A DNA stretch of 43,655 nt from a phage (GCA_029093185.1 GCA_029093185.1_4348.1); one strand, 5' to 3'; numbered from the stretch's first letter, positions 3,147-42,747 are shown. The notes: generated by a model from the sequence alone, not told the origin. Numbers and translations: made by a program.

Positions 3147-3175
3147 ACTATAATAGCTAACTATTCAGGTGTCAA
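3147..3175 (-). promoter_or_regulatory. Sigma70-type promoter with embedded operator palindrome
   Basis: Minus strand TTGACA (rc of 3170-3175), 17-nt spacer, TATAGT (rc of 3147-3152); spacer contains TAATAG-CTAA-CTATTC. Confidence 0.6.
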
Positions 3176-3364: not shown

Positions 3365-4602
3365 TCTAAATCCTCCTCTGTTACCCTATTCCACTCAGGA
3401 CGTTTGTCGTCTGCCGTTGCAACACATGGTGCGCCTGGCTTACGGGTAATGAAGTCTTTCAGTTCTTCTTCCGGTATGACTTTAACCGCTTCGGTTGGCG
3501 TCATGAGCACTTGCTTCATTAGCGCTATGCCATACTTGCCAGCCACTTTCTCTGCGTCTTTCCACGCACGATTGCCCGGGCGGCCCTCAACCAGCTTGTA
3601 CCCCGGCACTTTCTTACCGGAATGCAACGCGGTGGCCATCGCTTTCTCAACCTTGTCGATGTGCTGGCGCAACAACGGCAACTTCTCATATTCAGCTACG
3701 AGTTGCTCCGGCGTAAGTTCCAGCGCAAAGTCGTCCTCCAGTTCTTCCGCCAGTACAGAGTTAACGGTTTTTGTACGCGCGGCACACTGTTCAGAGAACC
3801 GACACCACTGACAACCATCTACAGACGGCTTGAAATCAGATGCTTTCAGGTTCTTCTTACCGCGGAAATACGCATCAAGCGCCAACAGTGCACGTTTCTT
3901 GGCAAACTTAGCGAACAGTTCCAGACCTTCAACCGAGATGTCCCACTCCGACGCACCGCCAGCGTACGGCTGGAAGATGACCAGGCGCACTACTGTGATG
4001 TTATAACGTCTCTTGAGTCGGCGATAAACACCGAGAGCGTAAAGCATAAGCTGCTTGTTTTCTTTCGCTTCGACGCGATGCCGCCCGGTTTTCAGGTCGC
4101 CGATAATGAGCATGTGCTCGTCGGTGTTTGCCAGTTCCTGTACAGCAACGAGGTCAGCGGTTCCGAACGTCTCAACGCCTTCATACCCCGGATGCAATAC
4201 CTCAGTAAGATTGACACGCATTTCCAGCTTGGCGTAAGTCGCTACGTCTATAATCGCTTTGCAGTAGTCGGTGTACTTGCGCACCTGCTCAATCATGTCC
4301 GCCGTAATCAGTACCGCGCCTTTCATCGGGCTGATTAGCGCCTTAATCTGACCTTTACCCTCATCCAGCACGTAAGCACCGACTTCACGTTCTAACGGCA
4401 GCGCAGTGCCACGGATATGAGCGTTGAGATGGACCTCGGCTATGGTGTGACACGCGGTCCCCGTAACAGCAGCTTTACCGGACGTGTTAGGAATATCTTT
4501 TTCACAGGCCAGTGATGCACTGCACGCCAGCCACTTTTTGGCGCCAGACGGCGACAGTAAGGCGTGCACATCGTTATTGCCACCGCGTTCTTTTAGAATC
4601 AT
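3361..4602 (-). CDS. Cas4/RecB-like PD-(D/E)xK exonuclease (DUF2800-like) with probable 4Fe-4S cysteines
   Basis: 413 aa; RecB-family motifs IIGDLKTG and QLMLYALG; N-terminal Cys pair (WLACSASLAC) plus C-terminal CQWCRFSEQC; C-terminus ends VTEEDLE. Confidence 0.7.
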   Translation of the reverse strand: MILKERGGNNDVHALLSPSGAKKWLACSASLACEKDIPNTSGKAAVTGTACHTIAEVHLNAHIRGTALPLEREVGAYVLDEGKGQIKALISPMKGAVLITADMIEQVRKYTDYCKAIIDVATYAKLEMRVNLTEVLHPGYEGVETFGTADLVAVQELANTDEHMLIIGDLKTGRHRVEAKENKQLMLYALGVYRRLKRRYNITVVRLVIFQPYAGGASEWDISVEGLELFAKFAKKRALLALDAYFRGKKNLKASDFKPSVDGCQWCRFSEQCAARTKTVNSVLAEELEDDFALELTPEQLVAEYEKLPLLRQHIDKVEKAMATALHSGKKVPGYKLVEGRPGNRAWKDAEKVAGKYGIALMKQVLMTPTEAVKVIPEEELKDFITRKPGAPCVATADDKRPEWNRVTEEDLE

Positions 4603-4961: not shown

Positions 4962-5215
4962 TGGTCAATTAAATGCCGTGTCTTGTGGTCGCAATGTAAG
5001 GCCCATCCATACATCGACTCGAAGACATAAAAGTCAGGCTTGGCGAAAGTTGTGCGCTTAATCTGTGACACGTGACGGCCTATATCTTTAGGCCGTGGTA
5101 CTTTTCCTAAGTACGCCATCTCTTCCATCTGGTGCGCACCGGACGGAGCACGCAATAGCCATAGCGCCTCTGTGTTATCCCGCCTGTCGACGGCTCGGTA
5201 GAGTTGGTAAATCAT
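4943..5215 (-). CDS. Hypothetical protein
   Basis: 90-aa ORF in the operon; contains HCDHKTRH, a possible metal-binding patch. Confidence 0.45.
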   Translation of the reverse strand: MIYQLYRAVDRRDNTEALWLLRAPSGAHQMEEMAYLGKVPRPKDIGRHVSQIKRTTFAKPDFYVFESMYGWALHCDHKTRHLIDQWENRV

Positions 5216-5227
5216 AATTCCGACCCT

Positions 5228-5251
5228 CAGTTAAAGCGGCCCGAAGGCCGC
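5228..5251 (-). terminator. Intra-operon hairpin, possible attenuator/terminator
   Basis: GCGGCC / GGCCGC stem with 4-nt loop (5236-5251); T-rich tract follows on the minus strand. Confidence 0.35.
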
Positions 5252-5258
5252 GAGATAG

Positions 5259-5759
5259 TTATTCTTCTTCGAAATACTTGTTCTTGATTGCTGTCAGGCG
5301 TTCCAGGTATTCAGCCAGGTCTTCGTCTTTAATCGCTGCAATCTTCATTTTCTTACCTGTGAACTCTTCCAGCAGTTCATCAGAATCATCGCACGCGGCA
5401 TCGCTCGGACCTTCGTTAATTGCATCGTCGATAGCCTGAATCTGGTCGCGCAGAGACTTATAGTCTACTTCTTCTTTCTCTTCTTCCGGCTCTGGCGTCG
5501 TTTCCTCTACTTTAGCTTTACGCGGCTTGCGTTTTGGCTTCTCTTCCTCCGCCGGTTTAGTGTCAACTACGTCTTCACCTTCAACCGGGATTTCTTTTGT
5601 TGCTTCTTCAGCGCACTCAGCTACCGCTTCTTTGGTGTACGATACCGTCTCTACTTCCAGCGGCGTGGCAACCTGAACAACTTGTTTCGCACTGTTCGCG
5701 GCAATCAGTTCGTGCGCAACTACGAAACGTTCCAGTAATACTAAGAATTTCTCTAACAT
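5259..5759 (-). CDS. Highly acidic low-complexity protein
   Basis: 166 aa; central Glu/Lys/Pro-rich tract (EEEKPKRKPRKAKVEETTPEPEEEKEE) and acidic C-terminus. Confidence 0.55.
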   Translation of the reverse strand: MLEKFLVLLERFVVAHELIAANSAKQVVQVATPLEVETVSYTKEAVAECAEEATKEIPVEGEDVVDTKPAEEEKPKRKPRKAKVEETTPEPEEEKEEVDYKSLRDQIQAIDDAINEGPSDAACDDSDELLEEFTGKKMKIAAIKDEDLAEYLERLTAIKNKYFEEE

Positions 5760-5783
5760 TATTTATTCTCCTGTTTATTTGGG

Positions 5784-6011
5784 CTACTCGCCGTCGCCTT
5801 CTGTAAGGCTATCGTCTATTAATTCAAATTTACCGTTTGGGTGTTGAATAGCTTCTTGCCCGCAATGGTCGCAGACAACAAGTTTATCGAACCCATCAAA
5901 CTCATCCCCTACTACGCAAGAAAGTACAAATTTATGTTTTGTGCACACTTCTTGCGGAGCGCCGAAAATTGCTCGAAAACCTTTAGCTATGGCCCCAGTG
6001 ATTGTGTTCAT
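5784..6011 (-). CDS. Small zinc-ribbon protein
   Basis: 75 aa with CTKHK...C and CDHC cysteine/histidine pairs. Confidence 0.5.
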   Translation of the reverse strand: MNTITGAIAKGFRAIFGAPQEVCTKHKFVLSCVVGDEFDGFDKLVVCDHCGQEAIQHPNGKFELIDDSLTEGDGE

Positions 6012-6039
6012 ATCTGCCCCTCTCGTTTGGTATGGGCTA

Positions 6040-6068
6040 ACTATAATAGCGAACTATTCACATGTCAA
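6040..6068 (-). promoter_or_regulatory. Sigma70-type promoter with embedded operator palindrome
   Basis: Minus strand TTGACA (rc of 6063-6068), 17 nt, TATAGT (rc of 6040-6045); contains TAATAG-CGAA-CTATTC. A degenerate second copy (TAATAT-GGTA-CTATTC) lies at 6088-6107 just upstream of the XRE gene. Confidence 0.6.
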
Positions 6069-6132
6069 TGGGCTTTTCTAAAATAATTAATATGGTACTA
6101 TTCACATATCAACTGACTAAGGAGTAATTGAC

Positions 6133-6348
6133 ATGCAACCATCTGAACTAGGCATCCGTGTAGAACAACGCCGCAAAGAACTCGGCATCTCCCAGCGCCG
6201 TTTGGCGGCCCTGACCGGCGTTTCCCAGGGCGCGATTAACCAACTGGCACTTGGAGTAACTCAGGACGTCCGCCCGGCAACGCTGTTCAAACTGGCGGAA
6301 GTTCTGGAAGTAGACGCCAAGTGGCTGGCGTTAGGTGAAGGGGCTTAA
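6133..6348 (+). CDS. XRE-family (Cro/CI-like) helix-turn-helix regulator
   Basis: 71 aa; HTH signature ISQRRLAALTGVSQGAINQLALG; AAGGAG Shine-Dalgarno 9 nt upstream. Confidence 0.8.
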   Translation: MQPSELGIRVEQRRKELGISQRRLAALTGVSQGAINQLALGVTQDVRPATLFKLAEVLEVDAKWLALGEGA

Positions 6349-6364
6349 AGCCCCTTTCTTTTTA
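6338..6364 (+). terminator. Rho-independent terminator of the XRE gene
   Basis: Hairpin GGGGC-TTAAA-GCCCC whose loop contains the XRE stop codon, followed by TTTCTTTTT. Confidence 0.55.
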
Positions 6365-6365
6365 C

Positions 6366-8624
6366 CTATTCCAAATCCTCCTCTGTCACCACCAGCATCT
6401 CATTTGGTTCGTATAGTGTCTTCGGCCTTAATCTATCCCCTATTCTTTCGGGTATACGATATGTTCTCGGTACTACTTCGCCGTTAGCATCGCAACCAAG
6501 CATTAGTTCTCCATCTTTCAACATTTTATCAAGATGGGTGTTAGTCACAGAGAAGTCACCGGAACGAGCCACTATCTGCTGCTGAGTAAAACCGCGACCT
6601 GTGTCATCTGACTGTTGCAGGTCTTCCAGTGCCGAAAGTATTGACTCCTTCCTTACTTCATCCCTGCCGCGTTTAACTTCTTCCTTTACTTTTTGCTTAC
6701 CTTCTTTCGTCAACCCTTCTTCCCGCTCTTTCTCCTCGTCAGTTTTGAACGGCTCGAAACCCCACGGCATCAACACAAGCGCCTTGTGTGGTTCAGGCAG
6801 GTCCAGGTTTACGATTGTGCCGTATTCCTCTGTGCTACCCAGGAACTCAACCGCTCGGTATTCTTTAGGCGGCGGCGCTTCACGGAACTGTACCGACTCC
6901 AGCACCATGCCAACCGTCTTCTGCTGAGGCCCGTGCTTGAATTTCGAGTGATATACGTTTATCTGACGGTCGGTTGCACGTTCGATTGTCAGTTCCACGT
7001 CAACACCCGCATACAGCGCCCCACTGCCGCGTGCTTTCTTTCCACCCTTCGGCGTATGGTGGACAACGCCTACTGCGGCTTTAGTTGCATCGCGTACTTC
7101 TTTCAGAATGGCGATAACTTTACCCATGCCGATTGCTGTTGATGAACTGTTCTCGTCGAACTTATCAATCGTCAGGGCCAGCGTCTGGTTAAGGGTGTCG
7201 AAGGCAACCATGCCAATAGGTTCATCCCCTGCGGTTTCGCGCATCCTGCGGATTAGAGCTGGAATTTTTTTATCACCATGCGTAGCGAGTATTTCGCCCA
7301 TATCGATGACATGTACATAATCTTTACCTTCCTCGCCATATTTAGCCGCGAGTGCATCAATACGTGTTCGTGTAGCTGCACCACCCTCGCCGTCAATATA
7401 GAAATGGTGGCAACGTTGGGTGTCAGCCCCCGCAAACCGGTACCCGGCGGCGCTCAGGTACATCATCCCCAGCGTATAGAATGATTTGTACGTGCCGGAT
7501 TCCCCGACAATATCCCAGATACAATCCGACGGCATGTACCCCTCAACGACGAAATCAGCCTTTACCGGTTCTGGTAACTCGTCCTCCTCTGAGTCCTCGT
7601 CGTCTTCCAGGTCGTCGAGGCTGCATGAGACAGATTCACGCGCCCCCCAACCGATGGCCTCTGCGACTTCACTGAACGGCAGCCCGGTCGCATCGCACGC
7701 GTACTTCCACACCTCTTTCGGTGACAGGCCTTCTGTCGCCGTAATGTCTGTGTCGTGAATCATGGTTACGTTTGGCGCTTCATACCCCTCGCGCGGGAAG
7801 CACAGCAGGAAGTCGTCCGGGCGCGGTGTCGGGTCGCTGTAGTTTTCGGCATGTTCCGGTGTGGCTGGCATCTTAAGGCCGCGCGGCGTCATGACGCCGC
7901 CGTACTCAAACGCCAGTGCTTCAAACGCGTCTGTAAACGCGGTGCGCAGTTCTTCCGGTATCTGGTAATCCGATGCGCTGCTAACGTCAACGGCTGGGAT
8001 GCCTTCCAGTAACTCGTTCGGGTCGATCAGGTCGTTGCGGCGCGACCAGATAACGGTAGCGCCGACCGGCGGCAGGTACATCGGCTGCGACAGAGTGAAC
8101 CCGCTGCGGTCCGCACCCATGCCTTTGAAGAAGTGCTCCAGCAACCCATGACGAACACGGATGATGTCACCACCCTCCACCGGACGGGCCAGTGGCATTA
8201 CGACGCGAAAGCGCGGTGACTCATCAGTATGTGATGCCGTGGTATAGAGGCACATGGCCCAGCGGCTGCGCTTAACCAGGCGCACCGCTTCCTGATACTC
8301 TTCCGGTGTTGTGCTGTCGAAATCCAGATAGGCCAGCGACGATTTGCTTACAGACGCATCGCAGCGGTAGAAAAAACCTTTACGCGCTTGCTTAAAGTCT
8401 CCAGTTTCCGGGTCTTTTACGGTGCTGTGCGTTGAGTCGCACGCGGCGGTGATATAACCGGGCGCGGTCTTAGGGTTAATCCCGTCGCGAACGGCATCGA
8501 GCGGCTGGATTAACTCTTTCAGGTCGTCCAGTGTTGCCGTGTGTGCGGTTCTGACATTTATATCCTTTTTTCCCGCCCGCGCGTTGCGGCGTGACCACGA
8601 GTAGGATAAAATTACATCGGACAT
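6366..8624 (-). CDS. DNA primase/helicase (RecA-like AAA_25-type ATPase with N-terminal primase-like domain)
   Basis: 752 aa; Walker A GESGTYKS; VGVVHHTPKGG motif typical of RepA/AAA_25 helicases; C-terminus ends VVTEEDLE. Confidence 0.65.
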   Translation of the reverse strand: MSDVILSYSWSRRNARAGKKDINVRTAHTATLDDLKELIQPLDAVRDGINPKTAPGYITAACDSTHSTVKDPETGDFKQARKGFFYRCDASVSKSSLAYLDFDSTTPEEYQEAVRLVKRSRWAMCLYTTASHTDESPRFRVVMPLARPVEGGDIIRVRHGLLEHFFKGMGADRSGFTLSQPMYLPPVGATVIWSRRNDLIDPNELLEGIPAVDVSSASDYQIPEELRTAFTDAFEALAFEYGGVMTPRGLKMPATPEHAENYSDPTPRPDDFLLCFPREGYEAPNVTMIHDTDITATEGLSPKEVWKYACDATGLPFSEVAEAIGWGARESVSCSLDDLEDDEDSEEDELPEPVKADFVVEGYMPSDCIWDIVGESGTYKSFYTLGMMYLSAAGYRFAGADTQRCHHFYIDGEGGAATRTRIDALAAKYGEEGKDYVHVIDMGEILATHGDKKIPALIRRMRETAGDEPIGMVAFDTLNQTLALTIDKFDENSSSTAIGMGKVIAILKEVRDATKAAVGVVHHTPKGGKKARGSGALYAGVDVELTIERATDRQINVYHSKFKHGPQQKTVGMVLESVQFREAPPPKEYRAVEFLGSTEEYGTIVNLDLPEPHKALVLMPWGFEPFKTDEEKEREEGLTKEGKQKVKEEVKRGRDEVRKESILSALEDLQQSDDTGRGFTQQQIVARSGDFSVTNTHLDKMLKDGELMLGCDANGEVVPRTYRIPERIGDRLRPKTLYEPNEMLVVTEEDLE

Positions 8625-8681
8625 GTTGTATTTCCTTCAGCAAGTAATTTGGCCTCGGCGCTCTAACGCTGGGGCTTTCTT

Positions 8682-8915
8682 TTATTCCAGGTCTTCTAAA
8701 GTGGCTGTCACCCCACGAACTTCGGCAACAGCACTATATCTCCCGCCAACATTTTTCACGACACCAGATTTAACCAGCACCTTCAACGACCCTTCAATGA
8801 TGGCGGAACTATAGTACCTAAAATAACTGCGGCGCAAGTCCATAACGCTGCACGACCCTTTTTTACGTGTTACCGAAACAACCGCCGTAAATACGCGTGA
8901 CTGGAACTCGGTCAT
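8682..8915 (-). CDS. Hypothetical replication-associated protein
   Basis: 77 aa; C-terminus ends TLEDLE, matching the tails of the nuclease and primase-helicase. Confidence 0.5.
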   Translation of the reverse strand: MTEFQSRVFTAVVSVTRKKGSCSVMDLRRSYFRYYSSAIIEGSLKVLVKSGVVKNVGGRYSAVAEVRGVTATLEDLE

Positions 8916-9106
8916 TTTACATTCTCCTTAATCCACGCTTCTACTTTCTCCGGGTCGAACGTACCAGGCTGCCGGCGGCCCATAATACGGATACAACAAT
9001 CCGGGAACTTCCCACTCTTTAACCAGTTATTCAGCGTGCGACGAGTAACCCCGATACGCTCAGCTACCTCATTCTGTGTCATTCTCAAACCCTCATTATC
9101 AGTCAA
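8912..9106 (-). CDS. AlpA/excisionase-like HTH DNA-binding protein
   Basis: 64 aa; LRMTQNEVAERIGVTRRTLNNWLKSGKFP; first gene of the minus-strand operon. Confidence 0.6.
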   Translation of the reverse strand: MTDNEGLRMTQNEVAERIGVTRRTLNNWLKSGKFPDCCIRIMGRRQPGTFDPEKVEAWIKENVK

Positions 9107-9522
9107 CGAAACTTAGTATACATTGCGAATAATGGGAAATCAAACATAATCGCACCTATTGACATTATGAAAATCTTCGTTTAAGGTGCTTTTGTATCTT
9201 AGTTACTTTGATTCCTGTTCACCTTGTAAAACCGCTTAAAACGCAGCTGCGCGCAGCGCAAGCAAAGTGTTAAGCGAAAGTTTACTGAACATAAGAATTA
9301 TCGTAACTTTCCTTCCTAAGTATCTCCGGTTGCCCTGGGCAAGCTCTATTCTCATCGGCAGCATATCTCTTAAGTATCTGATTTTCTTAATGTGCCGTAG
9401 ATTCGCAACCGTAAAAATGTAACGATTATTGGGCAGGCTTAAGCCTGCCCTTTAGCTACCAAGTAATAAGAATAAAGGCACAACCCTCCCCGAAGAATCA
9501 CAACGGCAACGTAACTATTCTC

Positions 9523-9556
9523 TTGCACACCCCAACATAATAGGTTACTATTCACT
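9523..9556 (+). promoter_or_regulatory. Early promoter (TTGCAC-17-TACTAT) with operator palindrome
   Basis: TTGCAC 9523-9528, 17-nt spacer, TACTAT 9546-9551; TAATAG-GTTA-CTATTC overlaps the -10. Confidence 0.55.
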
Positions 9557-9585
9557 TATCGAAACGAGACATAAGGAATTTAGAA

Positions 9586-9804
9586 ATGAACAAAGCGACC
9601 GCAAGCGTAGTTTCCGCAATCAAACAAGTTTACGGCATCGATATTTCAGAGCGCGTAATTATCGGGAACAAACGCAACTTCTTTACGTTCGGCACCGACG
9701 GTATGGATGGAAACGATTTTAACAACGTACAACGTTTCGCTATCGGTAAGGGGCTTCGTAATGAGCCTGCGGGTTACAAGAAATTCGCTATCTACTTTAA
9801 ATAA
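9586..9804 (+). CDS. Hypothetical early protein
   Basis: 72-aa ORF, first gene after the divergent control region; AAGGAA Shine-Dalgarno. Confidence 0.55.
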   Translation: MNKATASVVSAIKQVYGIDISERVIIGNKRNFFTFGTDGMDGNDFNNVQRFAIGKGLRNEPAGYKKFAIYFK

Positions 9805-9925
9805 ACCCACGGCATCTAATCATGATGCTCGTGCCGACGACTCTGAGGGAGGTTGCCGTGAATAATTACCCGTTTATTTTAATTGTCAGCGCTGTTTATG
9901 AGGCGCACGCGTTGTGGGGGTTGGT

Positions 9926-10120
9926 ATGAGTCCGTATAACCGGTTTCGTCTGGAGCGTCTACGTCACGGATTAAGTAACGCTAAATTAGCTCTCGATATA
10001 TGGGAAAGTACGCCGTATTTTTCCTCGAAGGCATGGTTTGTCGCTCGCGCTACAGCGTCCGTTCAGTACCGGGAATACAAGTTAAACAGTTTCCTTAAAC
10101 ACCATGGGGCTAAGTTATGA
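9926..10120 (+). CDS. Hypothetical early protein
   Basis: ORF 9914..10120 (GTG); the ATG at 9926 has a G-rich Shine-Dalgarno upstream. Confidence 0.4.
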   Translation: MSPYNRFRLERLRHGLSNAKLALDIWESTPYFSSKAWFVARATASVQYREYKLNSFLKHHGAKL

Positions 10121-10278
10121 GAGAAGCATTCGAACGGTGGGCCGTCGTCGATGGTCTGCCGGTTAATAAGGGTTCGAAGAAAGAGTACCTGAACGTTAAG
10201 ACGCGTCTTGCGTGGCGGGCGTGGAAAGCTGGTGCGCAATATCGGGCCGGTGTAACAGGCGGTGTAACAGGTCAATAG
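10117..10278 (+). CDS. Hypothetical small protein (53 aa)
   Basis: ATG overlaps the upstream stop (ATGA); below the 60-aa cutoff of the ORF track, found by reading the frame. Confidence 0.35.
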   Translation: MREAFERWAVVDGLPVNKGSKKEYLNVKTRLAWRAWKAGAQYRAGVTGGVTGQ

Positions 10279-10426
10279 GTTACTATTTGTCTTTGTGTCT
10301 TACGCTGCTACACAGCAGCGTACAACTTTAACTTAGTGTCGTCAAAAGGCGACACTTCCATAAGACACTGTTGGGGCAGGGATAAAGTGTCCCCAGTTAG
10401 CGACACTAAGCACCAATAAAATTTAC

Positions 10427-10455
10427 TTGCACACTAGGATAGAATAGACTACTAT
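10427..10455 (+). promoter_or_regulatory. Internal early promoter with perfect GAATAG-N4-CTATTC palindrome
   Basis: TTGCAC 10427-10432, 17 nt, TACTAT 10450-10455; GAATAG-ACTA-CTATTC. Confidence 0.5.
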
Positions 10456-10486
10456 TCATTTACACGAACGAGAGGAGATACGGAAG

Positions 10487-10636
10487 ATGGTTACTTTGAT
10501 GGTTATGGAATTCGAAAACAGCGCAGCAACTTACCGTGAGATGACTATGGCGCAGGCGTATCACCTGGCCTCAAACGGCAACTTCTACAAGGCGCAAATC
10601 ATCAACGAGTTTGGGGTAATTGACTATGAATTTTAG
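10487..10636 (+). CDS. Hypothetical small protein (49 aa)
   Basis: ATG preceded by GAGGAGA; read manually, below the ORF-track cutoff. Confidence 0.4.
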   Translation: MVTLMVMEFENSAATYREMTMAQAYHLASNGNFYKAQIINEFGVIDYEF

Positions 10637-10898
10637 CAGCTACACCGTTACCGTTGATTTTGAGGGGCTGGAGTTGCCCCTCCCCAACAACTACAGATAT
10701 GTCACGCGCGACCGTAACGGGTTTATCCAGGGGTGGCGGAACAAACCGACAGATACTGAGTTCGGGATGTCGGGCGGCGAAGAGTTGCCTATCACTTTCG
10801 GGCATCAGAGTAGCAGCGAAGAGCTTAAAACTGTGATTCGTAAGTATCGCCGCCGCGGTAACACTGGGCTTATAGCAATAACAGGTGCTGTTGAATAA
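10620..10898 (+). CDS. Hypothetical early protein
   Basis: 92-aa ORF overlapping the upstream small ORF. Confidence 0.5.
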   Translation: MTMNFSSYTVTVDFEGLELPLPNNYRYVTRDRNGFIQGWRNKPTDTEFGMSGGEELPITFGHQSSSEELKTVIRKYRRRGNTGLIAITGAVE

Positions 10899-10927
10899 GC
10901 GAGAGGAGAGACAAAGGTGAAAGAGCT

Positions 10928-11131
10928 ATGACCAGCATCTTATTTATCTGGGTATTGTCCGCAGGCCAGATGCAACTCGCAGCATCGGAAACGTTTTACT
11001 CGATGGAGGCGTGCCAGTCAGCGGCACGCGCTGCAGAGAACGCGCACTTTCTGTTTCAGGGCGACAAGCCCAACGATTCAGAGGTACGCGCTATCTGCTC
11101 ACCTAAGCGACTTGGTAAACAGGAGAAGTGA
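10928..11131 (+). CDS. Hypothetical protein with N-terminal hydrophobic segment
   Basis: 67 aa; N-terminus ILFIWVLSAGQMQLAA looks like a signal peptide or membrane anchor. Confidence 0.45.
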   Translation: MTSILFIWVLSAGQMQLAASETFYSMEACQSAARAAENAHFLFQGDKPNDSEVRAICSPKRLGKQEK

Positions 11132-11325
11132 TTATGGTACGGTTATATGAAGCACGAGGGACTGAATTAGGGGGCGACGCATTCTACGAAGATTGGGTTG
11201 AGGTTGTTCGGTATGAAGATTACGCGAAACTTGAAGCTGAGTTACAGAAATACAAAGACCAGTACCCTGATTACGTCGAGTGCGCGAACTGCGGGTCGGT
11301 TACACATGTGGAAGGGGTGGAGTAA
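11128..11325 (+). CDS. Hypothetical protein (paralog pair, member 1)
   Basis: 65 aa; YEDYAKLEAELQKYK motif shared with the next gene. Confidence 0.5.
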   Translation: MIMVRLYEARGTELGGDAFYEDWVEVVRYEDYAKLEAELQKYKDQYPDYVECANCGSVTHVEGVE

Positions 11326-11519
11326 TGGTGCAGAGATATGAGGTAAAAGCGTGGGGCCTGCCAGAGCCTGAGATGGCTGAGTACGCATACGGCGATTATG
11401 TAGAATATGACGCTTATCTGAAACTTGAAGCAAAGTTACGTGAATTCGCTAAGCAGGTGCTAGATAGCCCGTGTGACTGGAAGACAAATGAATTAGCGCG
11501 CGAGATTCTTGGAATATGA
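11325..11519 (+). CDS. Hypothetical protein (paralog pair, member 2)
   Basis: ATG 11325 overlaps the upstream stop (TAATG); YDAYLKLEAKLREFAK motif. The ORF track's longer version starts at GTG 11280. Confidence 0.45.
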   Translation: MVQRYEVKAWGLPEPEMAEYAYGDYVEYDAYLKLEAKLREFAKQVLDSPCDWKTNELAREILGI

Positions 11520-11809
11520 GCCTTGCAACTGACATCCTGAAACGAAGCGGCCTTGCGCCGCTGTCACCGAGAGCGAAGACACGTATACACAAGCGTCGCC
11601 GTAACGTGCTGTACCCAGAGATACAAGAACGGCGTAAAGCTATCCGCGCCTGTGGATTCCAGAACGGAAAGGCCGTGAATCTCGGTGAGTTTAAAACAAA
11701 GGAACGCGCAGCTATCGCGAACCGGCTATTTAATTACTGGAAATCGCTGGGGTACGATGATATTCCGACGAAACCACAGAGACGACAATACATCTGGAGA
11801 CATAAATGA
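11516..11809 (+). CDS. Hypothetical basic protein
   Basis: 97 aa, Lys/Arg-rich. Confidence 0.45.
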   Translation: MSLATDILKRSGLAPLSPRAKTRIHKRRRNVLYPEIQERRKAIRACGFQNGKAVNLGEFKTKERAAIANRLFNYWKSLGYDDIPTKPQRRQYIWRHK

Positions 11810-12246
11810 CTACTATCGCGTTTGACGGAAAGACAATGGCCTGTGATACCCGTGTTGTGTGCGGGAGTAACTGTTACAACACAGACACAAAGATATACGA
11901 GAACGAATTTGTTGTTATTGGGGCGGCTGGCGATGCAGGGGTTGGTATCCTTTTAGTGGAGGACGATAGTATTTTAGTGCCTAAGCACTACGATTTTGAT
12001 TTCTCTGCCTTGGTGTGGGTTAAAGACATCGAAACGTTGTGTAGGGTGGAGTTCTATAAATCTTGGGATTGTGCTCTTAGTTTGGTTATTCAGATTGCGG
12101 ACAGCTTTTCCGCCGTTGGTTCAGGCGCCCCTTATGCCCTAGCGGCTATGGAATGTGGGTATTCGGCGCAAGGTGGTGTAGCAGTTGCATCGAAGTTCGA
12201 CCCTGACACCGGCGGCAAGATTATTACCAAACAACTATTAGGATAA
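11806..12246 (+). CDS. HslV/proteasome-beta-like Ntn-hydrolase (putative peptidase)
   Basis: 146 aa starting M-TTIAF; DGKTMACDTR (Asp17 region), TDTKIY (Lys33 position), VIGAAGDAGVG, and AVGSGAPYALAAME resembling the HslV GSGGPYA segment. Confidence 0.5.
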   Translation: MTTIAFDGKTMACDTRVVCGSNCYNTDTKIYENEFVVIGAAGDAGVGILLVEDDSILVPKHYDFDFSALVWVKDIETLCRVEFYKSWDCALSLVIQIADSFSAVGSGAPYALAAMECGYSAQGGVAVASKFDPDTGGKIITKQLLG

Positions 12247-12614: not shown

Positions 12615-12879
12615 GTTATTCTGGTTCTGCGGTATGCTGGCAATCGGAGGCACATCGCTGTTTAATGTGTATCATCCCAGCGTTGACGACGGGCTATTTG
12701 GCCGGGTGCTCTATATCCTGACTGCTATTGTCTGCGCCGCAGGATGTATCCACCTGTTACAGGGCAGCATGTCTCCGACGCTGCCTGAGACATTAATCAC
12801 ATTAGTTGCGCTGCGCCAGATTCGTCAGGCGTGGCTGTCATACGGAGGACATAAGCGTGTCTCGAAACATTTCAGATAA
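12607..12879 (+). CDS. Putative second holin/antiholin membrane protein
   Basis: ATG 12607 overlaps the upstream stop (ATGAATGA); two hydrophobic segments; in frame with the ORF-track entry 12427..12879. Confidence 0.4.
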   Translation: MNELFWFCGMLAIGGTSLFNVYHPSVDDGLFGRVLYILTAIVCAAGCIHLLQGSMSPTLPETLITLVALRQIRQAWLSYGGHKRVSKHFR

Positions 12880-13345
12880 TGGATTGCATTTTACCGCTGC
12901 ATTCGAGGGGTTCCGTGGAACTGCGTATCGTGCTACGCCGAACGAGAAGTACCTTACTATTGGCTACGGAAGCTACGGCCCTCATGTGTATGAAGGGCAG
13001 AAGATTACGAAGGGTCAGGGACTCCTGTTACTGAATCGTGATATGGCTAAGGCCGTAGCTGCGGTTGACGCAGCGGCACACCACTCCCTGACACAGGCAC
13101 AGTTCGATGCAGTGTGCGACCTGGTCTATAACGCTGGTGCTGGTGTGATTGCCGCTGCCACCGGTACGGGTAAGGCACTGCGTTCCGGTGATGTTGCGAC
13201 GCTGCGGGCTAAGCTGGCGTTGTTCATCAACCAGAACGGCAAACCATTACTCGGCCTGCGCCGCCGTACAGCTGGTCGTCTGGCGCTGTTCGACGGTAAA
13301 CCGTGGCAGGAGGCAGAGGCTATCGGGCGCGCGGTGAAAGGTTGA
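12857..13345 (+). CDS. Endolysin, lysozyme-like (GH24/T4-lysozyme-like fold)
   Basis: FEGFRGTAY...TIGYG matches the T4-lysozyme catalytic Glu and TIGIG region; GTG 12857 has a GGAGGA Shine-Dalgarno 7 nt upstream (the ORF track starts it at 12806). Confidence 0.7.
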   Translation: MSRNISDNGLHFTAAFEGFRGTAYRATPNEKYLTIGYGSYGPHVYEGQKITKGQGLLLLNRDMAKAVAAVDAAAHHSLTQAQFDAVCDLVYNAGAGVIAAATGTGKALRSGDVATLRAKLALFINQNGKPLLGLRRRTAGRLALFDGKPWQEAEAIGRAVKG

Positions 13346-13441: not shown

Positions 13442-13462
13442 TCTATTTTCTGCGATGACTAG

Positions 13463-13491
13463 TTGACTATTATCTATGACCATATTATATT
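13463..13491 (+). promoter_or_regulatory. Sigma70-like promoter
   Basis: TTGACT 13463-13468, 17-nt spacer, TATATT 13486-13491; immediately downstream of the terminator. Confidence 0.5.
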
Positions 13492-18664: not shown

Positions 18665-18687
18665 AGCCCCGAAAGGGGCTTTCTTAT
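18665..18687 (+). terminator. Terminator-like hairpin after the portal gene
   Basis: AGCCCC-GAAA-GGGGCT followed by TTCTT. Confidence 0.4.
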
Positions 18688-18723
18688 AGTATGCTATTAA
18701 CTTTAGCGCCACAGGGTTGATCT

Positions 18724-20231: not shown

Positions 20232-20258
20232 AAGGCCCCATTATGGGGCCTTAGTTTT
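20232..20258. terminator. Bidirectional rho-independent terminator
   Basis: AAGGCCCC-ATTAT-GGGGCCTT flanked by a T-run on the plus strand and an A-run upstream; sits between convergent genes. Confidence 0.6.
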
Positions 20259-20461
20259 CAACGGAATCTTGTGTTTAAATCCTGCTCATGGACAACCCTC
20301 AGAACAGTGTCATAATCCCCGTATCTTCCAGGTTCAAATATATCTAATGCCTTGTAAGCAGACATTGCGTCAGGGAAAACCTGCAGAACCTTTTTAACCC
20401 GGCACAAGTCACCGTCGAACTCTTCATCGAACTCTTGAACTACTTCGCAAATTGCATACAT
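20258..20461 (-). CDS. Small acidic antisense moron protein
   Basis: 67 aa, about 14 acidic versus 8 basic residues; strong AGGAGGTG Shine-Dalgarno; own promoter and terminator. Confidence 0.6.
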   Translation of the reverse strand: MYAICEVVQEFDEEFDGDLCRVKKVLQVFPDAMSAYKALDIFEPGRYGDYDTVLRVVHEQDLNTRFR

Positions 20462-20488
20462 TTTTCACCTCCTGTTTAAGTTAACTGA

Positions 20489-20517
20489 ATAGTACCCTAT
20501 TATATTGGGGTGTGCAA
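20489..20517 (-). promoter_or_regulatory. Early-type promoter with operator palindrome driving the antisense moron
   Basis: Minus strand TTGCAC (rc of 20512-20517), 17 nt, TACTAT (rc of 20489-20494); TAATAG-GGTA-CTATTC. Confidence 0.55.
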
Positions 20518-20569: not shown

Positions 20570-20585
20570 AACTATTCGAATAGTT
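20570..20585. promoter_or_regulatory. Perfect 16-bp palindrome AACTATTCGAATAGTT
   Basis: Same half-sites (CTATTC/GAATAG) as the recurrent operator but abutting with no spacer; adjacent to a TTGACT hexamer. Confidence 0.4.
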
Positions 20586-20836
20586 GACTTTTCACTAAAA
20601 ATATGATAAGCTCCACCTGAGCTTGTGAAGTATGAACAAGCGACCGCGGCGCGGGCAGGTAACGGAGCGGGACGTAAGTCCTGAGTGTAGTTACGCTGAC
20701 GCGTTCGGAAGGGCCATACTCTATTGCTTGTGTAAAAAGTAACTGGTTTACTGAGATTACGCCGTTTCTATGTTTAAATGATAAGGACTAGCGCCCCGCT
20801 TTATGGCGGGGCTTTACTTATCGAGAAAGGGGAAAC

Positions 20837-27809: not shown

Positions 27810-27835
27810 AAGGCCCCGAAAGGGGCCTTTTTTAT
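27810..27835. terminator. Bidirectional rho-independent terminator
   Basis: AAGGCCCC-GAAA-GGGGCCTT followed by TTTTTTATT; also terminates the convergent antisense operon. Confidence 0.65.
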
Positions 27836-28065
27836 TACTCATCAATGTTACTCCTGTACTCCCGTAACTTTTCCAGACTTTCAATTGCTTCCGCTAAGTC
27901 GGTTCCGGTGTCCTTGTGTCCACGTAAACCCATGCACAATAGCTTCTTCAATGCGTGCTGTAACGCCGGGTCGCGGATGTCGAAAGCGCGGAGCACATCA
28001 TAAACGTCTACTGTCATAGTGCTGCCGTGAGTATTTGTCATTGTGCGGTTGTATTTTGAAGTCAT
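27835..28065 (-). CDS. Hypothetical small protein (third gene of the antisense moron operon)
   Basis: 76 aa; ATGA overlap with the phosphoesterase gene. Confidence 0.55.
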   Translation of the reverse strand: MTSKYNRTMTNTHGSTMTVDVYDVLRAFDIRDPALQHALKKLLCMGLRGHKDTGTDLAEAIESLEKLREYRSNIDE

Positions 28066-29192
28066 CCCAGCATCTCCGGTGAAATAGTTAAACGTGCGAC
28101 CTCGCCATATTCGGCGCTATAAGTAATTACATTTGCACTGCGGCCTGACATCCACCCGCCGCGGGAGGCATAGGCGTCTTTAGCCGCTAAGGTGCGGTGT
28201 TGCTCAACAATCATGTTACGGCTTTCTACAATCTTCTGGTGGTGCAGGTGGCCTACGTGGGCGTAGCTATAGACACTCTCACCGAACGCTTTGCGGAATT
28301 TGGCAATCATAACCGGTTCGATAGCATCGAATCGCGCCTTATGCCCGTGGTGAAAGAACAACGTCGTTTTTCCGTGTTGCACCATCTTGTAAACATCCGG
28401 CGACGTATCGACAATCACTCGGCTGTCGTTCGAATATAAAACTGTGAACATTTCAGCCAGCCATACAGAGCCTACAGGGTCATGGTTCCCCTGTACGATA
28501 AGCAAGCGAACATTTTTATGTTTAACCAGTGCCATATCTACAACACAGCGTACCATACGAATCATGTAGCGGACGAGTTTCTGGTAGCGAGTGTCTGCGT
28601 CCAACACGTGACGCGACTCAGGTGTAACGGCATCCAGACTATCGAAGTGCGCGAAATCACCCAGCAGGTTAATAACTCCTGTTCCTGCATCCGGTGCTTT
28701 CTGAAACGCCGCGTCGAACCAACGAGAGAACAGGTCTTCCGCAATCTTTATATCCCAGTCGTCGCCGCTCTCGTCGGCCCAGGCAAGCATACCGAGATGG
28801 AAATCAGATACCGTGTAAAGATTGAGTAGCTTGTCGTCGCGTTTGGCTCGAGTCGCTTTAGCCGGCGCAACTGGCGTAATCTCTGACTTCATGCCTTCAA
28901 TCACGGCTTTCATCAACTCGACCTGACGTTCAGCGTCGGTGTCTGTCTTAACCCATTGCAACTTAGTATTGCCGAACTCGTCTACCAGAGACGACGTTCC
29001 TTTAATCTTGTAGCCGTCTGGCACAAGGTGGCTAACGTCACGCCCGTGGCCTACACCTTTCTTAGCCAGCTTCGCTTTACGGATACGAATAACTCGGTCT
29101 GAGATGCCGTATTTACGGGCGATGTCTACATTCTTCATCCCGGCGTTCAATTCTTCCTGTAACTGTTCGTCGGTTATTTTCTTCTGGGCCAT
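28062..29192 (-). CDS. HTH-fused calcineurin-like metallophosphoesterase
   Basis: 376 aa; N-terminal HTH (VDIARKYGISDRVIRIRKAKL); phosphoesterase motifs VSDFHLG (DxH), LGDFAHFD (GDxxD), VQGNHDP (GNHD), HHGH and GHLHH. Confidence 0.7.
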   Translation of the reverse strand: MAQKKITDEQLQEELNAGMKNVDIARKYGISDRVIRIRKAKLAKKGVGHGRDVSHLVPDGYKIKGTSSLVDEFGNTKLQWVKTDTDAERQVELMKAVIEGMKSEITPVAPAKATRAKRDDKLLNLYTVSDFHLGMLAWADESGDDWDIKIAEDLFSRWFDAAFQKAPDAGTGVINLLGDFAHFDSLDAVTPESRHVLDADTRYQKLVRYMIRMVRCVVDMALVKHKNVRLLIVQGNHDPVGSVWLAEMFTVLYSNDSRVIVDTSPDVYKMVQHGKTTLFFHHGHKARFDAIEPVMIAKFRKAFGESVYSYAHVGHLHHQKIVESRNMIVEQHRTLAAKDAYASRGGWMSGRSANVITYSAEYGEVARLTISPEMLG

Positions 29193-29257
29193 GCTTACTT
29201 CCTCGTGTTTAGGATTTGTCCTATTTAACCACAGTGGATTCCTTTAAATAAAGGCAA

Positions 29258-29584
29258 CTATTTACTTTCTGCGCCTATCGCCCACCCTGTCATTACCATT
29301 TGCAGACGGGTGGCTGTCAGTAGGCTATAGAAAGCATCTCCGTTTTTCTCTACCGAACGTATCACTGTGTAGGTTACGGCCTGCGGGGGTAGGCCCGATT
29401 TACCAACCTCCACGGCGGCCTCACACTCGCGAACTGTAGAGTCCTTGAACGCCTTTACAATAGTAGGGTCGGCTTTCCCGAGCACACCAGAAGTCATAAG
29501 AACAGATTCACTAAATACCTGTTCGCACGGGGCTCCAAAAGTAGCAAAAGACATAAACCCCAGAGCTAATACTAATTTACGCAT
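29258..29584 (-). CDS. Small secreted protein with cleavable signal peptide
   Basis: 108 aa; MRKLVLALGFMSFATFGAP signal-like N-terminus; two Cys in the mature part; no lipobox. Confidence 0.55.
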   Translation of the reverse strand: MRKLVLALGFMSFATFGAPCEQVFSESVLMTSGVLGKADPTIVKAFKDSTVRECEAAVEVGKSGLPPQAVTYTVIRSVEKNGDAFYSLLTATRLQMVMTGWAIGAESK

Positions 29585-29612
29585 AATTATACCCTCAGTA
29601 AGTTACTGGTGA

Positions 29613-29641
29613 ATAGTACCCTATTATATTGGGGCGCGCAA
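29613..29641 (-). promoter_or_regulatory. Early-type promoter with operator palindrome driving the antisense moron operon
   Basis: Minus strand TTGCGC (rc of 29636-29641), 17 nt, TACTAT (rc of 29613-29618); TAATAG-GGTA-CTATTC; a 24-bp identity with the promoter at 20487-20510. Confidence 0.55.
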
Positions 29642-29748
29642 GTAGTGTGTTAGAATAAGTTTGCGCCTAGTGTCGCACACGAAAAGCGGGTGGTTCCCGT
29701 CTGGCGCATTAACCATAACCAGTAACCTCTTAACCAAAGGACTAAAGA

Positions 29749-41451: not shown

Positions 41452-42241
41452 TTACTGCCCCCATGAACGCCTTTATAAATTCAGCGGCTACTTGCGGGAC
41501 GATGGCATTGCCGTAACCGCGCAATCGTCCCACTCTTGCGGATACCCCATGAGTTGCCTCGCAAAATCCGCCTGGTATGACTCTAGTTTCCTTATCTGCT
41601 CCATGGTTGGGTTTCCATGAATCCCATAAACATGAAGCCACATCTGGCGATAAAGAGTATCGTTCCTGAATTTTCCGTCCTTTCTGTAAAATGTCTTGCT
41701 GAGATCCCCGTAATCCTTCCATCCTCGCGCCGTTGGTGTCGCCCATCCTCGCGCCAAAGATGATTCTTTTCCTTTCCTGTGGAGAGCCGACGCTGCAAGC
41801 TGGCAATACTGACGCCCCGCAGGCGTAGCCTTTGTCTTCCAGGTTAAGGAATACAAAATCGAGCCAGTGCTTCCCAATTGCTGCTGCAACCTGCTCTCCA
41901 AACAGCAATTCAGGCTTGCACTCTCTGATGAGCCTGAGAAATGCTGGGGCAAGGTGTCGATCGTCGTCAAATCCGAGAGACTTACCGGCAACGCTAAACG
42001 GCTGGCAAGGTGGTGATCCTGTCCAGAGTCGAGTGCTTTCTGGTATTCCTGCCAGCTGGAGTGCAAGGGGCCACCCTCCGATTCCGGCAAAGAAGTGACA
42101 CTGTGTAAATCCTTCCAGGTCTGAAGGGGTGACTTCGGTGATTGATCGTTCATCGACATATCCGTAAGGAATTAGTTTATTGTTAATTAATTCACGCAGC
42201 CACGCGGCTGCGCCTTTATCCCATTCGTTGTAATAGTTCAT
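41444..42241 (-). CDS. Orphan DNA cytosine-5 methyltransferase
   Basis: 265 aa; motif I FFAGIGGW, motif IV SPPCQPFS, FGEQV (ENV-like), C-terminal GNAIVPQVA; no adjacent restriction endonuclease. Confidence 0.75.
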   Translation of the reverse strand: MNYYNEWDKGAAAWLRELINNKLIPYGYVDERSITEVTPSDLEGFTQCHFFAGIGGWPLALQLAGIPESTRLWTGSPPCQPFSVAGKSLGFDDDRHLAPAFLRLIRECKPELLFGEQVAAAIGKHWLDFVFLNLEDKGYACGASVLPACSVGSPQERKRIIFGARMGDTNGARMEGLRGSQQDILQKGRKIQERYSLSPDVASCLWDSWKPNHGADKETRVIPGGFCEATHGVSARVGRLRGYGNAIVPQVAAEFIKAFMGAVNE

Positions 42242-42429
42242 TTCGCCACCAGAACTAACTCTTTACGCCCGAACGCCGTAACGTTACCGGTTACGTCTTC
42301 AATAACCAGTTTACCGTTCGACTCGACGAACACCGTATCAACGGCAACAGGACGACGGGTCTTAACGTTGAAAATCATGTCGCCTGGTACGATGTCACGT
42401 GCTGGTTTGCGGTCATATTCGTGTTTCAT
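42238..42429 (-). CDS. Hypothetical protein
   Basis: 63-aa ORF, first gene downstream of the promoter at 42463-42491. Confidence 0.5.
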   Translation of the reverse strand: MKHEYDRKPARDIVPGDMIFNVKTRRPVAVDTVFVESNGKLVIEDVTGNVTAFGRKELVLVAK

Positions 42430-42459: not shown

Positions 42460-42747
42460 CTAACTATAATAGTTCGCTATTAGGTCGTCAACCTGTTTAA
42501 ACGAACCAACGACAAAAACATTTGCACCACGTTTACGCATCCGCTCGTGCTCTCGTATCTGGTGCGGGTCTGGCTTCGTGTTTTCGTCTTTCTTAACCTC
42601 GACGAACCAGACGATGCCGCCGGGGAGAATTACCAGCAGGTCGGGGGCGCCGGAGCGCCCCTCATAAGACAGCTTACGAACGAGGCCACCAATGGCCTCG
42701 AATCGCTCTTTTGCGTATTTCTGGATGCACCCCTCAGGCGTACTCAT
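42460..42747 (-). CDS. VRR-NUC domain nuclease
   Basis: 95 aa; PD-(D/E)xK-type pattern GAPDLLVIL...VEVKK. Confidence 0.6.
   Translation of the reverse strand: MSTPEGCIQKYAKERFEAIGGLVRKLSYEGRSGAPDLLVILPGGIVWFVEVKKDENTKPDPHQIREHERMRKRGANVFVVGSFKQVDDLIANYYS
42463..42491 (-). promoter_or_regulatory. Sigma70-type promoter with embedded operator palindrome
   Basis: Minus strand TTGACG (rc of 42486-42491), 17 nt, TATAGT (rc of 42463-42468); TAATAG-TTCG-CTATTA. Confidence 0.55.

Follow-up and report, generated by a model that had tools for sequence, protein, structure and literature searches.

The 43.6-kb stretch of DNA from a virulent E. coli phage analysed here (43,655 nucleotides, hereafter the window) carries the same imperfect palindrome, TAATAG-N4-CTATTC, in nearly all of its strong promoters, which raises the question of what reads it. 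With a G+C content of 51%, the window covers all or nearly all of the genome of a Kagunavirus-like siphophage (subfamily Guernseyvirinae). The original prediction, made for positions 6040-6107, placed the palindrome in at least eight promoters and proposed a regulon under one dimeric phage protein, either an XRE-type regulator encoded at 6133-6348 (+ strand) or an excisionase-like HTH_17 protein of 63 amino acids encoded at 8912-9106 (- strand). The analysis described here indicates that the palindrome, in general form (T/G)AATAG-N4-CTATT(A/C), is very likely an operator, and the evidence somewhat favours the phage's own XRE protein, a 434-Cro-like protein and the proposed repressor, as its reader.

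When the window was scanned for TAATAG-N4-CTATTC with up to two mismatches, 24 strand-hits were obtained, compared with 2.55 ± 1.78 in shuffled sequences (maximum 8). The exact core AATAG-N4-CTATT is present in 8 copies where 0.05 are expected; none of 300 first-order Markov simulations contained more than 1. No other 5-N(0-12)-5 palindrome is as frequent in the window, and in Salmonella phage Jersey the core is likewise the commonest gapped palindrome. By itself the half-site AATAG shows no enrichment (77 copies against 74 expected), and the signal therefore resides in the dyad. A symmetric half-site weight matrix picked out seven sites at 20.5-20.6 bits, four weaker ones at 15.7-15.8 bits and one at 12.7 bits (starting at 10273); noise reached at most 10.9 bits, and the top score in simulated sequence averaged 12.3 bits and never exceeded 15.8 (40 simulations). 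All 12 sites are located at promoters or gene ends. The eight palindromes of the original prediction were all recovered in their places, with a strong excess over the shuffled controls, and four sites came in addition (10273-10288, 13457-13472, 18684-18699 and 20578-20593).

Each of the strong sites overlaps the stretch from -35 to -10 of a promoter that points the right way and lies 28-60 nt upstream of a start codon. Two promoter architectures had been described, and both are present. The first, TTGACA/TTGACG-17-TATAGT, occurs in three copies, all on the minus strand; its 16-mer starts 3 nt after the -35 hexamer, ends 2 nt into the -10 hexamer and is centred at about -18.5, reading GAATAG..CTATTA along the direction of transcription. 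The second, TTGCAC/TTGCGC-17-TACTAT, occurs in four copies; here the 16-mer extends from 9 nt beyond the -35 to 2 nt beyond the -10 and is centred at about -12.5, reading TAATAG..CTATTC. Relative to the -35 and -10 elements, the two designs thus carry the motif in opposite orientations and at positions that differ by 6 bp. A third register, centred at about -33.5, is occupied by degenerate copies lying over the -35 (GACTAG-TTGA-CTATTA at 13457 and GAATAG-TTGA-CTTTTC at 20578). All register positions refer to inferred, not mapped, start sites.

The seven strong predicted operators are distributed over both arms of the genome, whose gene map was taken from the annotated genomes of Jersey and Escherichia phage GertrudWoker_Bas73 (Bas73), the closest relative at 95% identity (7-kb query, window 5000-12000; 477 phage records matched). 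The leftward arm contains the replication and recombination genes (primase-helicase, exonuclease, single-stranded-DNA-binding protein (SSB), DNA polymerase, methyltransferase and helicase), and the rightward arm has the small early genes and those for lysis and structure. Two short cassettes that run leftward, 20258-20461 and 27835-29584, are set into the structural module. Within the first promoter design, the site at 3151-3166 (20.6 bits) covers spacer positions 4-17 of the ssb promoter TTGACA-17-TATAGT (3175-3147, -), reaches 2 nt into its -10 and is conserved in 29 unique orthologous upstream regions; the site at 6044-6059 lies in the leftward promoter 6068-6040 (-), which drives 5784-6011 onward and diverges from the XRE gene; and the fully symmetric site TAATAGTTCGCTATTA at 42467-42482 lies in the promoter TTGACG-17-TATAGT (42491-42463, -) of the methyltransferase/helicase operon. 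The second design accommodates the other four. The site at 9538-9553 runs from spacer position 10 to 2 nt beyond the -10 hexamer of the rightward promoter TTGCAC-17-TACTAT (9523-9551, +), and the site at 10442-10457 (GAATAGACTACTATTC) lies in the rightward promoter 10427-10455 (+) at the head of the operon leading into the lysis genes. The site at 20487-20502 belongs to the leftward promoter 20517-20489 (-) of the small antisense gene 20258-20461, and that at 29611-29626 to the leftward promoter 29641-29613 (-), which drives 29258-29584, the conserved DNA-repair exonuclease gene 28062-29192, and 27835-28065. Extra single half-sites (AACTATTC and AATAGT) abut the -35 of the promoters at the 9538 and 20487 sites (9510-9522 and 20509-20517), AACTATTC standing just upstream of the former; AATAGT also abuts the -35 of one Jersey promoter (~39880).

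Throughout Kagunavirus and Jerseyvirus the motif is found again at the orthologous promoters. The comparison set consisted of three complete relatives, St162 and 64 IMG/VR loci around XRE homologues, to which EF2-1 and Serratia phage Otaku were added. For the ssb and methyltransferase promoters, 29 unique upstream regions each were aligned with MAFFT, anchored on the downstream start codon and hence independently of the motif; these alignments replaced an extraction by short anchors (≤3 mismatches), which was misregistered, and a regex-based entropy, which was circular. Across the two genera, both promoters keep the -35 and the two half-sites unchanged, while the central 4 bp and the 3 bp beside the -35 vary. 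The centres read TTAG, TTGG, CAAG, CGAG, TAGA, TACT or TTAA in the ssb promoter and CGAA, CACA, CAGA, CGGG, CTAG or AACA in the methyltransferase promoter. Column entropy is about 0 in the half-sites and 0.4-1.5 in the centre, as is expected of an inverted-repeat operator. It falls below 0.5 in 19 of 20 half-site columns as opposed to 2 of the 14 other columns of the 17-bp spacer (Fisher p=2e-6, Mann-Whitney p=9e-7), a contrast drawn inside the same alignments, in which the sequences are related and the columns are not fully independent.

Sigma-70 makes no base-specific contacts within the 17-bp promoter spacer. Half-sites that are kept where sigma-70 reads nothing, around a centre that is free to change, therefore point to a separate protein-binding site and not to a part of the promoter, and the pattern is the sequence signature of a site for a twofold-symmetric protein that leaves the centre uncontacted. 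The operator-like character claimed by the original prediction is thereby borne out, and it agrees with the occurrence of the palindrome in several registers and orientations. Two further observations bear on the same point. An exact copy of the core, CAATAGGTTACTATTT at 10273-10288, has no recognisable -35; it overlaps the stop codon of the open reading frame (ORF) 10117-10278, lies just 5' of a hairpin that was read by eye as a terminator (absent from the terminator scan list) and 169 bp upstream of the 10442 site, and is kept with a variable centre in Kagunavirus relatives. Conversely, the conserved promoter of the primase-helicase/HTH_17 operon, TTGATT-17-TATACT (9143-9115, -), contains no dyad site, and the motif is therefore not a generic feature of this phage's promoters.

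The repeat itself is not new. Seven PHIRE 'phage promoters' with the consensus tgAATAGTa-ccTATTat-T have been described in the Kagunavirus fBC-Eco01, and in Table S2 of that study, where they appear under the label 'Phage RNAP promoter' PP1-PP7, their sequences are identical to sites in the window (PMC9825357). Seven PHIRE promoters are likewise reported for the Kagunavirus Golestan (PMC7203180). The repeat has thus been catalogued already, under a wrong label; an operator reading of these repeats was not found in the literature.

That PHIRE picked the same 20-mers, labelled as phage RNA polymerase promoters by the fBC-Eco01 authors, would accord with an intrinsic element of a phage-specific promoter, read either by a phage RNA polymerase or by the host polymerase together with a phage specificity factor, as would the partial overlap of the motif with -10 hexamers and the AATAGT half-sites that abut the -35 in several promoters. 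Two defining properties of such promoters, a polymerase gene and a fixed orientation and register, are nevertheless missing as far as the sequences tell. No RNA polymerase, integrase or cI-type repressor is annotated among the 81 genes of Bas73, and no RNA polymerase among the annotated Jersey genes either. The promoters already fit the sigma-70 consensus with 17-bp spacing: those at 3175-3147 and 6068-6040 match at 11 of 12 positions each in a consensus scan, and TTGCAC-17-TACTAT, read directly, at 8 of 12. Moreover, the motif keeps no fixed orientation or distance, being inverted and shifted between the two designs and found over the -35 in the third register; the copy at 10273 has no promoter, a conserved promoter has no copy, and twofold symmetry around a free centre suits a dimer and not a polymerase. 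A phage-specific promoter element is thus distinctly improbable.

Two other readings of the repeat were considered and set aside. A bidirectional promoter was rejected: the opposite strand of TTGACA-17-TATAGT contains TATAAT but no usable -35, and the TATAAT arises automatically from CTATTA followed by TAGT. A role at the RNA level was also rejected, as the sites gave no Rfam hits and lie upstream of the inferred start sites.

If the palindrome is an operator, the question becomes which protein binds it. The 71-residue XRE protein contains a Pfam HTH_3 domain (E=3.9e-13), and its best solved homologues are dh434, a variant of the 434-repressor DNA-binding domain (E=4.8e-6), 434 Cro (E=8.5e-6) and 434 repressor (E=1.1e-5). 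Its AlphaFold model (predicted local distance difference test score, pLDDT, of 81) structurally matches HipB, C-proteins, 434 Cro and repressor, P22 c2 and SinR, all of which are dimeric binders of palindromes, and the operators of 434 and P22 have the same 5-N4-5 geometry. The XRE gene is monocistronic, with a strong Shine-Dalgarno sequence and its own bidirectional terminator (6337-6357). In its divergent control region a weak predicted operator, TAATATGGTACTATTC at 6088-6103 (15.8 bits), lies 5' of the gene and 44 bp from the strong site at 6044-6059, and the layout is retained in Jerseyvirus with the two sites 55 bp apart. The weak site overlaps a -10-like TACTAT (6096-6101) and stands just downstream of an alternative promoter, TTCACA-16-TAAAAT (6057-6084). 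With the two sites flanking or overlapping the candidate XRE promoters, this arrangement implies autoregulation of the putative repressor. The 75-residue product of the gene divergent to the XRE gene has no known domain in a domain search.

Similar arrangements accompany distant XRE homologues. On the unrelated contigs L040-L042 the palindrome TAAAG-N4-CTTTA occurs twice, 46 bp apart, upstream of an XRE homologue (L040, ~1878-1937 and 3942-4010), and on the unrelated contig L054 TGTAG-N4-CTACA occurs three times, flanking the gene (9878-10322). These homologues are 36-45% identical to the XRE protein of the window and share its palindrome geometry and paired spacing. The cases are anecdotes, as a wider palindrome survey near distant XRE homologues was too noisy because start codons are uncertain and many contigs are GC-rich.

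Further indications come from the relatives themselves. Position 1 of the operator is T in 70, G in 64, C in 5 and A in 5 of 144 Kagunavirus half-sites, and T in 50 of 50 in Jerseyvirus; this difference between lineages parallels the divergence of the putative XRE recognition helix, SQGAINQL in Kagunavirus and SQSLITHL in Jerseyvirus. A relative with a 78%-identical XRE protein retains both the helix and the operators. St162 contains nine sites of a looser motif, TAWTAS-N4-STAWTA, in the same promoter registers, and Otaku contains GAATAG-AATA-CTATTA at its ssb promoter plus two TAGTAG/TAATCG variants. The XRE ORF of Bas73 (PQ850603, 34027-34239) is 100% identical to that of the window and unannotated, a short minus-strand ORF being annotated there instead; the idea that Bas73 is a natural XRE knockout was dropped when this ORF appeared in a tblastn search.

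The resemblance to phage 434 extends beyond the fold. 434 Cro is likewise a small HTH_3 protein of 71 residues, to which the XRE protein is 39% identical over the aligned fold. As in the operators of 434 and of P22 c2 and Cro, a 14-16-bp inverted repeat has conserved outer half-sites around a variable 4-bp centre; as in 434 OR/OL, the sites overlap -35 and -10 elements, and the divergent region controlling the regulator itself has one strong and one weak site. Several features differ. The half-site is AATAG and not ACAAG or TTAAG, and binding by XRE is predicted from sequence, unlike that of the 434 proteins. Moreover, the predicted operators are single and scattered over about 12 places in the genome, whereas 434 has triple sites clustered at two control regions, and the Kagunavirus genome, to judge from Bas73, contains no annotated cI partner or integrase and has no prophage form. 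The phage family has been described as strictly virulent (PMC9825357, PMC7203180). A temperate immunity region with cI, Cro and integrase genes was sought and not found in the Bas73 annotation, nor does the exact promoter-operator module, TTGACA-N4-AATAG-N4-CTATTATAGT, occur in any of 185,579 bacterial species genomes. Lambda Cro at PL and PR offers a parallel to the proposed role, being a small early repressor that damps early promoters during infection, but its fold is different, its action is limited to two operator clusters, and it belongs to a lysis-lysogeny switch. The C proteins of restriction-modification systems and HipB have the XRE fold, bind as dimers to palindromic boxes overlapping promoters and regulate themselves, but each controls one operon and not a genome-wide set of promoters, and the sequence and spacing of their boxes differ.

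The absence of the module from bacterial genomes also bears on a host origin of the binding protein. The operator of TrpR, ACTAG-N4-CTAGT, has the same 5-N4-5 geometry. A host transcription factor common to E. coli and Salmonella, TrpR for example, would explain why the motif is found in phages of both hosts, and the sequence is close enough that a few variants read GACTAG or CTAGTA. However, all seven strong sites read AATAG/CTATT, with A where TrpR needs the C of CTAG. In IMG/VR a looser -35-plus-dyad pattern was found in 68 stretches, mostly from contigs of ~41-45 kb, as large as Guernseyvirinae genomes, a distribution that fits a phage-borne system. A host repressor placed over all of the phage's replication genes would also be implausible, and we regard this origin as extremely improbable.

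A more serious rival to XRE is another phage protein, either HTH_17 or one of the uncharacterised small early proteins. HTH_17 has a DNA-binding fold and shares 82-87% identity between Kagunavirus and Jerseyvirus; its degree of conservation follows the motif no less closely than that of XRE, which, taken alone, favours HTH_17. In St162 and Otaku, however, no HTH_17 homologue was detected, while both retain an XRE protein (40-42% identity) and motif-type sites. The promoter of the HTH_17 operon (9143-9115) itself lacks a site, excisionase-like winged helices usually bind direct repeats and not 5-N4-5 inverted repeats, and the classic autoregulatory layout is found at the XRE locus. Of the two candidates named in the original prediction, XRE is thus clearly favoured, as a 434 Cro homologue with sites in its own control region that persists together with the motif in lineages lacking HTH_17. 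A reader other than XRE among the phage's own proteins appears unlikely. Within Kagunavirus and Jerseyvirus, record counts (488 for XRE, including more distant phages, 443 for HTH_17 and 441 for SSB homologues of at least 60% identity) indicate no lineage that lacks either protein.

Several points weigh against XRE as the binder, besides the conservation of HTH_17 and the relatedness of the aligned sequences. The XRE proteins of Kagunavirus and Jerseyvirus are only 48% identical and differ at helix positions that probably contact bases, while the AATAG core is the same in both; 434 Cro and 434 repressor, which share their operator specificity although they have diverged to a comparable extent, would offer a precedent. 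In the St162/Cornellvirus-like group the looser motif and shifted promoter registers leave no clean covariation of helix and base. Many small early proteins have no assignable function, and any of them could be the binder. Binding, footprint, transcript-mapping or transcriptomic data for Kagunavirus or Jerseyvirus were not found in the literature. Finally, the weak -35 sites at two rightward promoters that feed structural genes do not agree with a simple early shut-off.

Those two sites belong to the weaker class. The predicted operator GACTAGTTGACTATTA at 13457-13472 (15.7 bits) is centred on the -35 of TTGACT-17-TATATT (13463-13491, +), upstream of small genes and the terminase genes. Its Jersey orthologue, TAATAGTTGACTAGTA at 42337-42352, has its mismatch in the other half-site, so that each phage has one perfect half-site, but not on the same side (GACTAG..CTATTA vs TAATAG..CTAGTA); that an imperfect half is kept in both genera suggests selection for intermediate affinity. 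The second site, GAATAGTTGACTTTTC at 20578-20593 (15.7-15.8 bits), is centred on the -35 of TTGACT-17-TAAGCT (20583-20611, +) and is overlapped by an everted palindrome, AACTATTCGAATAGTT at 20570-20585. The original prediction had taken the latter for a spacerless version of the motif; it is present at those positions, but neither element is conserved in Jersey, and the sequence is better read as the degenerate ordinary site at 20578-20593. A further weak site, TTATAGTATGCTATTA at 18684-18699 (15.8 bits), directly follows a terminator (18665-18680) and precedes the head morphogenesis gene, with no clear promoter.

The promoter at 20583-20611 is followed by an untranslated leader of ~200 nt that ends in a strong terminator hairpin (20793-20812) directly before gene 20837, the first of the block that includes the capsid genes. 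The leader (20583-20836) has no Rfam match, and Jersey has a similar leader and hairpin. By analogy with lambda PR'/tR', this layout hints that late genes may be controlled by antitermination. The palindrome could be a loading site for a processive antiterminator, like the lambda Q-binding element or the AlpA-binding element of Pseudomonas; it lies in the spacer of the three TTGACA-type promoters, as the AlpA-binding element does, and the genome contains long operons with internal terminators in addition to this leader. Yet AlpA, a much larger protein, occupies its 6-bp element as a single molecule, the dyad symmetry would be left unexplained, and the strong sites occupy early and replication promoters, the leader-terminator promoter having only a degenerate copy that Jersey lacks. 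Pseudomonas AlpA was also rejected as a model for HTH_17: it acts as a monomer on its 6-bp site, and the 63-residue HTH_17 protein shows no sequence similarity to it. An antiterminator loading site is therefore very improbable.

From the observed sites, their statistics, placement and conservation, and the homology of the XRE protein, we infer the following course of infection. On entry of the phage DNA, host sigma-70 polymerase would fire all of these promoters. As XRE accumulates, it would bind as a dimer, one subunit per half-site, and would occlude host RNA polymerase first at the seven promoters with strong operators, which drive the replication and recombination operons, the rightward small-gene and lysis operons and the two leftward cassettes. 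The weaker site at XRE's own promoter would provide negative autoregulation and hold the level of the protein steady. Repression would be the natural consequence of where the sites lie, and the promoters would together form the single-protein regulon that the original prediction envisaged. The predicted sites and the protein homology thus lend partial support to a repressor-operator regulon of this virulent phage that would be functionally Cro-type, a switch of an ordinary kind.

The two leftward cassettes deserve separate mention. Both had been taken for antisense morons under early-gene control, and predicted operators do lie in the promoters of both; the cassettes are not obviously morons, however, as one contains the conserved DNA-repair exonuclease gene, and the weaker sites over promoters feeding structural genes imply that control is not limited to early genes. 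Silencing of the cassettes would remove head-on transcription against the long rightward late transcripts. A perfect bidirectional terminator (27810-27829) separates the last rightward tail gene from the second cassette, and no plausible rightward promoter was seen before the tail-chaperone gene 29749 (window 29640-29748), so the tail genes may depend on read-through across the antisense cassette. Given the head-on orientation, the terminator and the lack of an obvious promoter before 29749, repression of the cassettes would favour late read-through. A broader version, in which a Cro-like protein would be the master timer of the whole virulent genome, with graded operators (seven strong, about five weak) in three registers ordering the shut-off, cassette silencing permitting late read-through and a 'Cro without cI' in ~450 sequenced Guernseyvirinae, is doubtful.

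The Guernseyvirinae, through Kagunavirus and Jerseyvirus, are among the phages of E. coli and Salmonella most often isolated for therapy and biocontrol; the genes in question are carried by ~440-490 phage-collection records, and the transcription programme of the subfamily is essentially unstudied. If correct, the interpretation of the palindrome as the XRE operator would supply a testable regulatory map of 12 sites with one candidate repressor and a hierarchy of site strengths, and would correct the published annotation of these sites as phage-polymerase promoters. It would also explain the recurring 'repressor' genes in phages judged strictly lytic, which is relevant where such genes flag a lysogeny risk, and would give those who engineer these phages a compact repressor/operator pair with strong repressible promoters. 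Conceptually the gain is modest, the mechanism being textbook; the main value would lie in the corrected annotation and a ready-made regulatory map for a large and practically important subfamily.

Some further observations concern the regions around these promoters. The site-free promoter at 9115-9143 lies in a 430-bp non-coding stretch (9107-9537) upstream of the HTH_17/primase-helicase operon and is kept in Kagunavirus and Jerseyvirus with a conserved spacer of its own (TCCCATTAT...); other Kagunaviruses have a TTGCTT-17-TATACT allele. Upstream of the orthologue of 42238-42429, the promoter-operator cassette is replaced in five relatives by unrelated sequence ending in a terminator. As the cassette is replaced wholesale, the regulatory module is gained or lost as a mosaic unit. 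In St162, a G-rich, repeat-laden non-coding stretch with GGGGGAGA-type repeats lies 3' of the primase-helicase gene (12686-12976) and may be an origin region.

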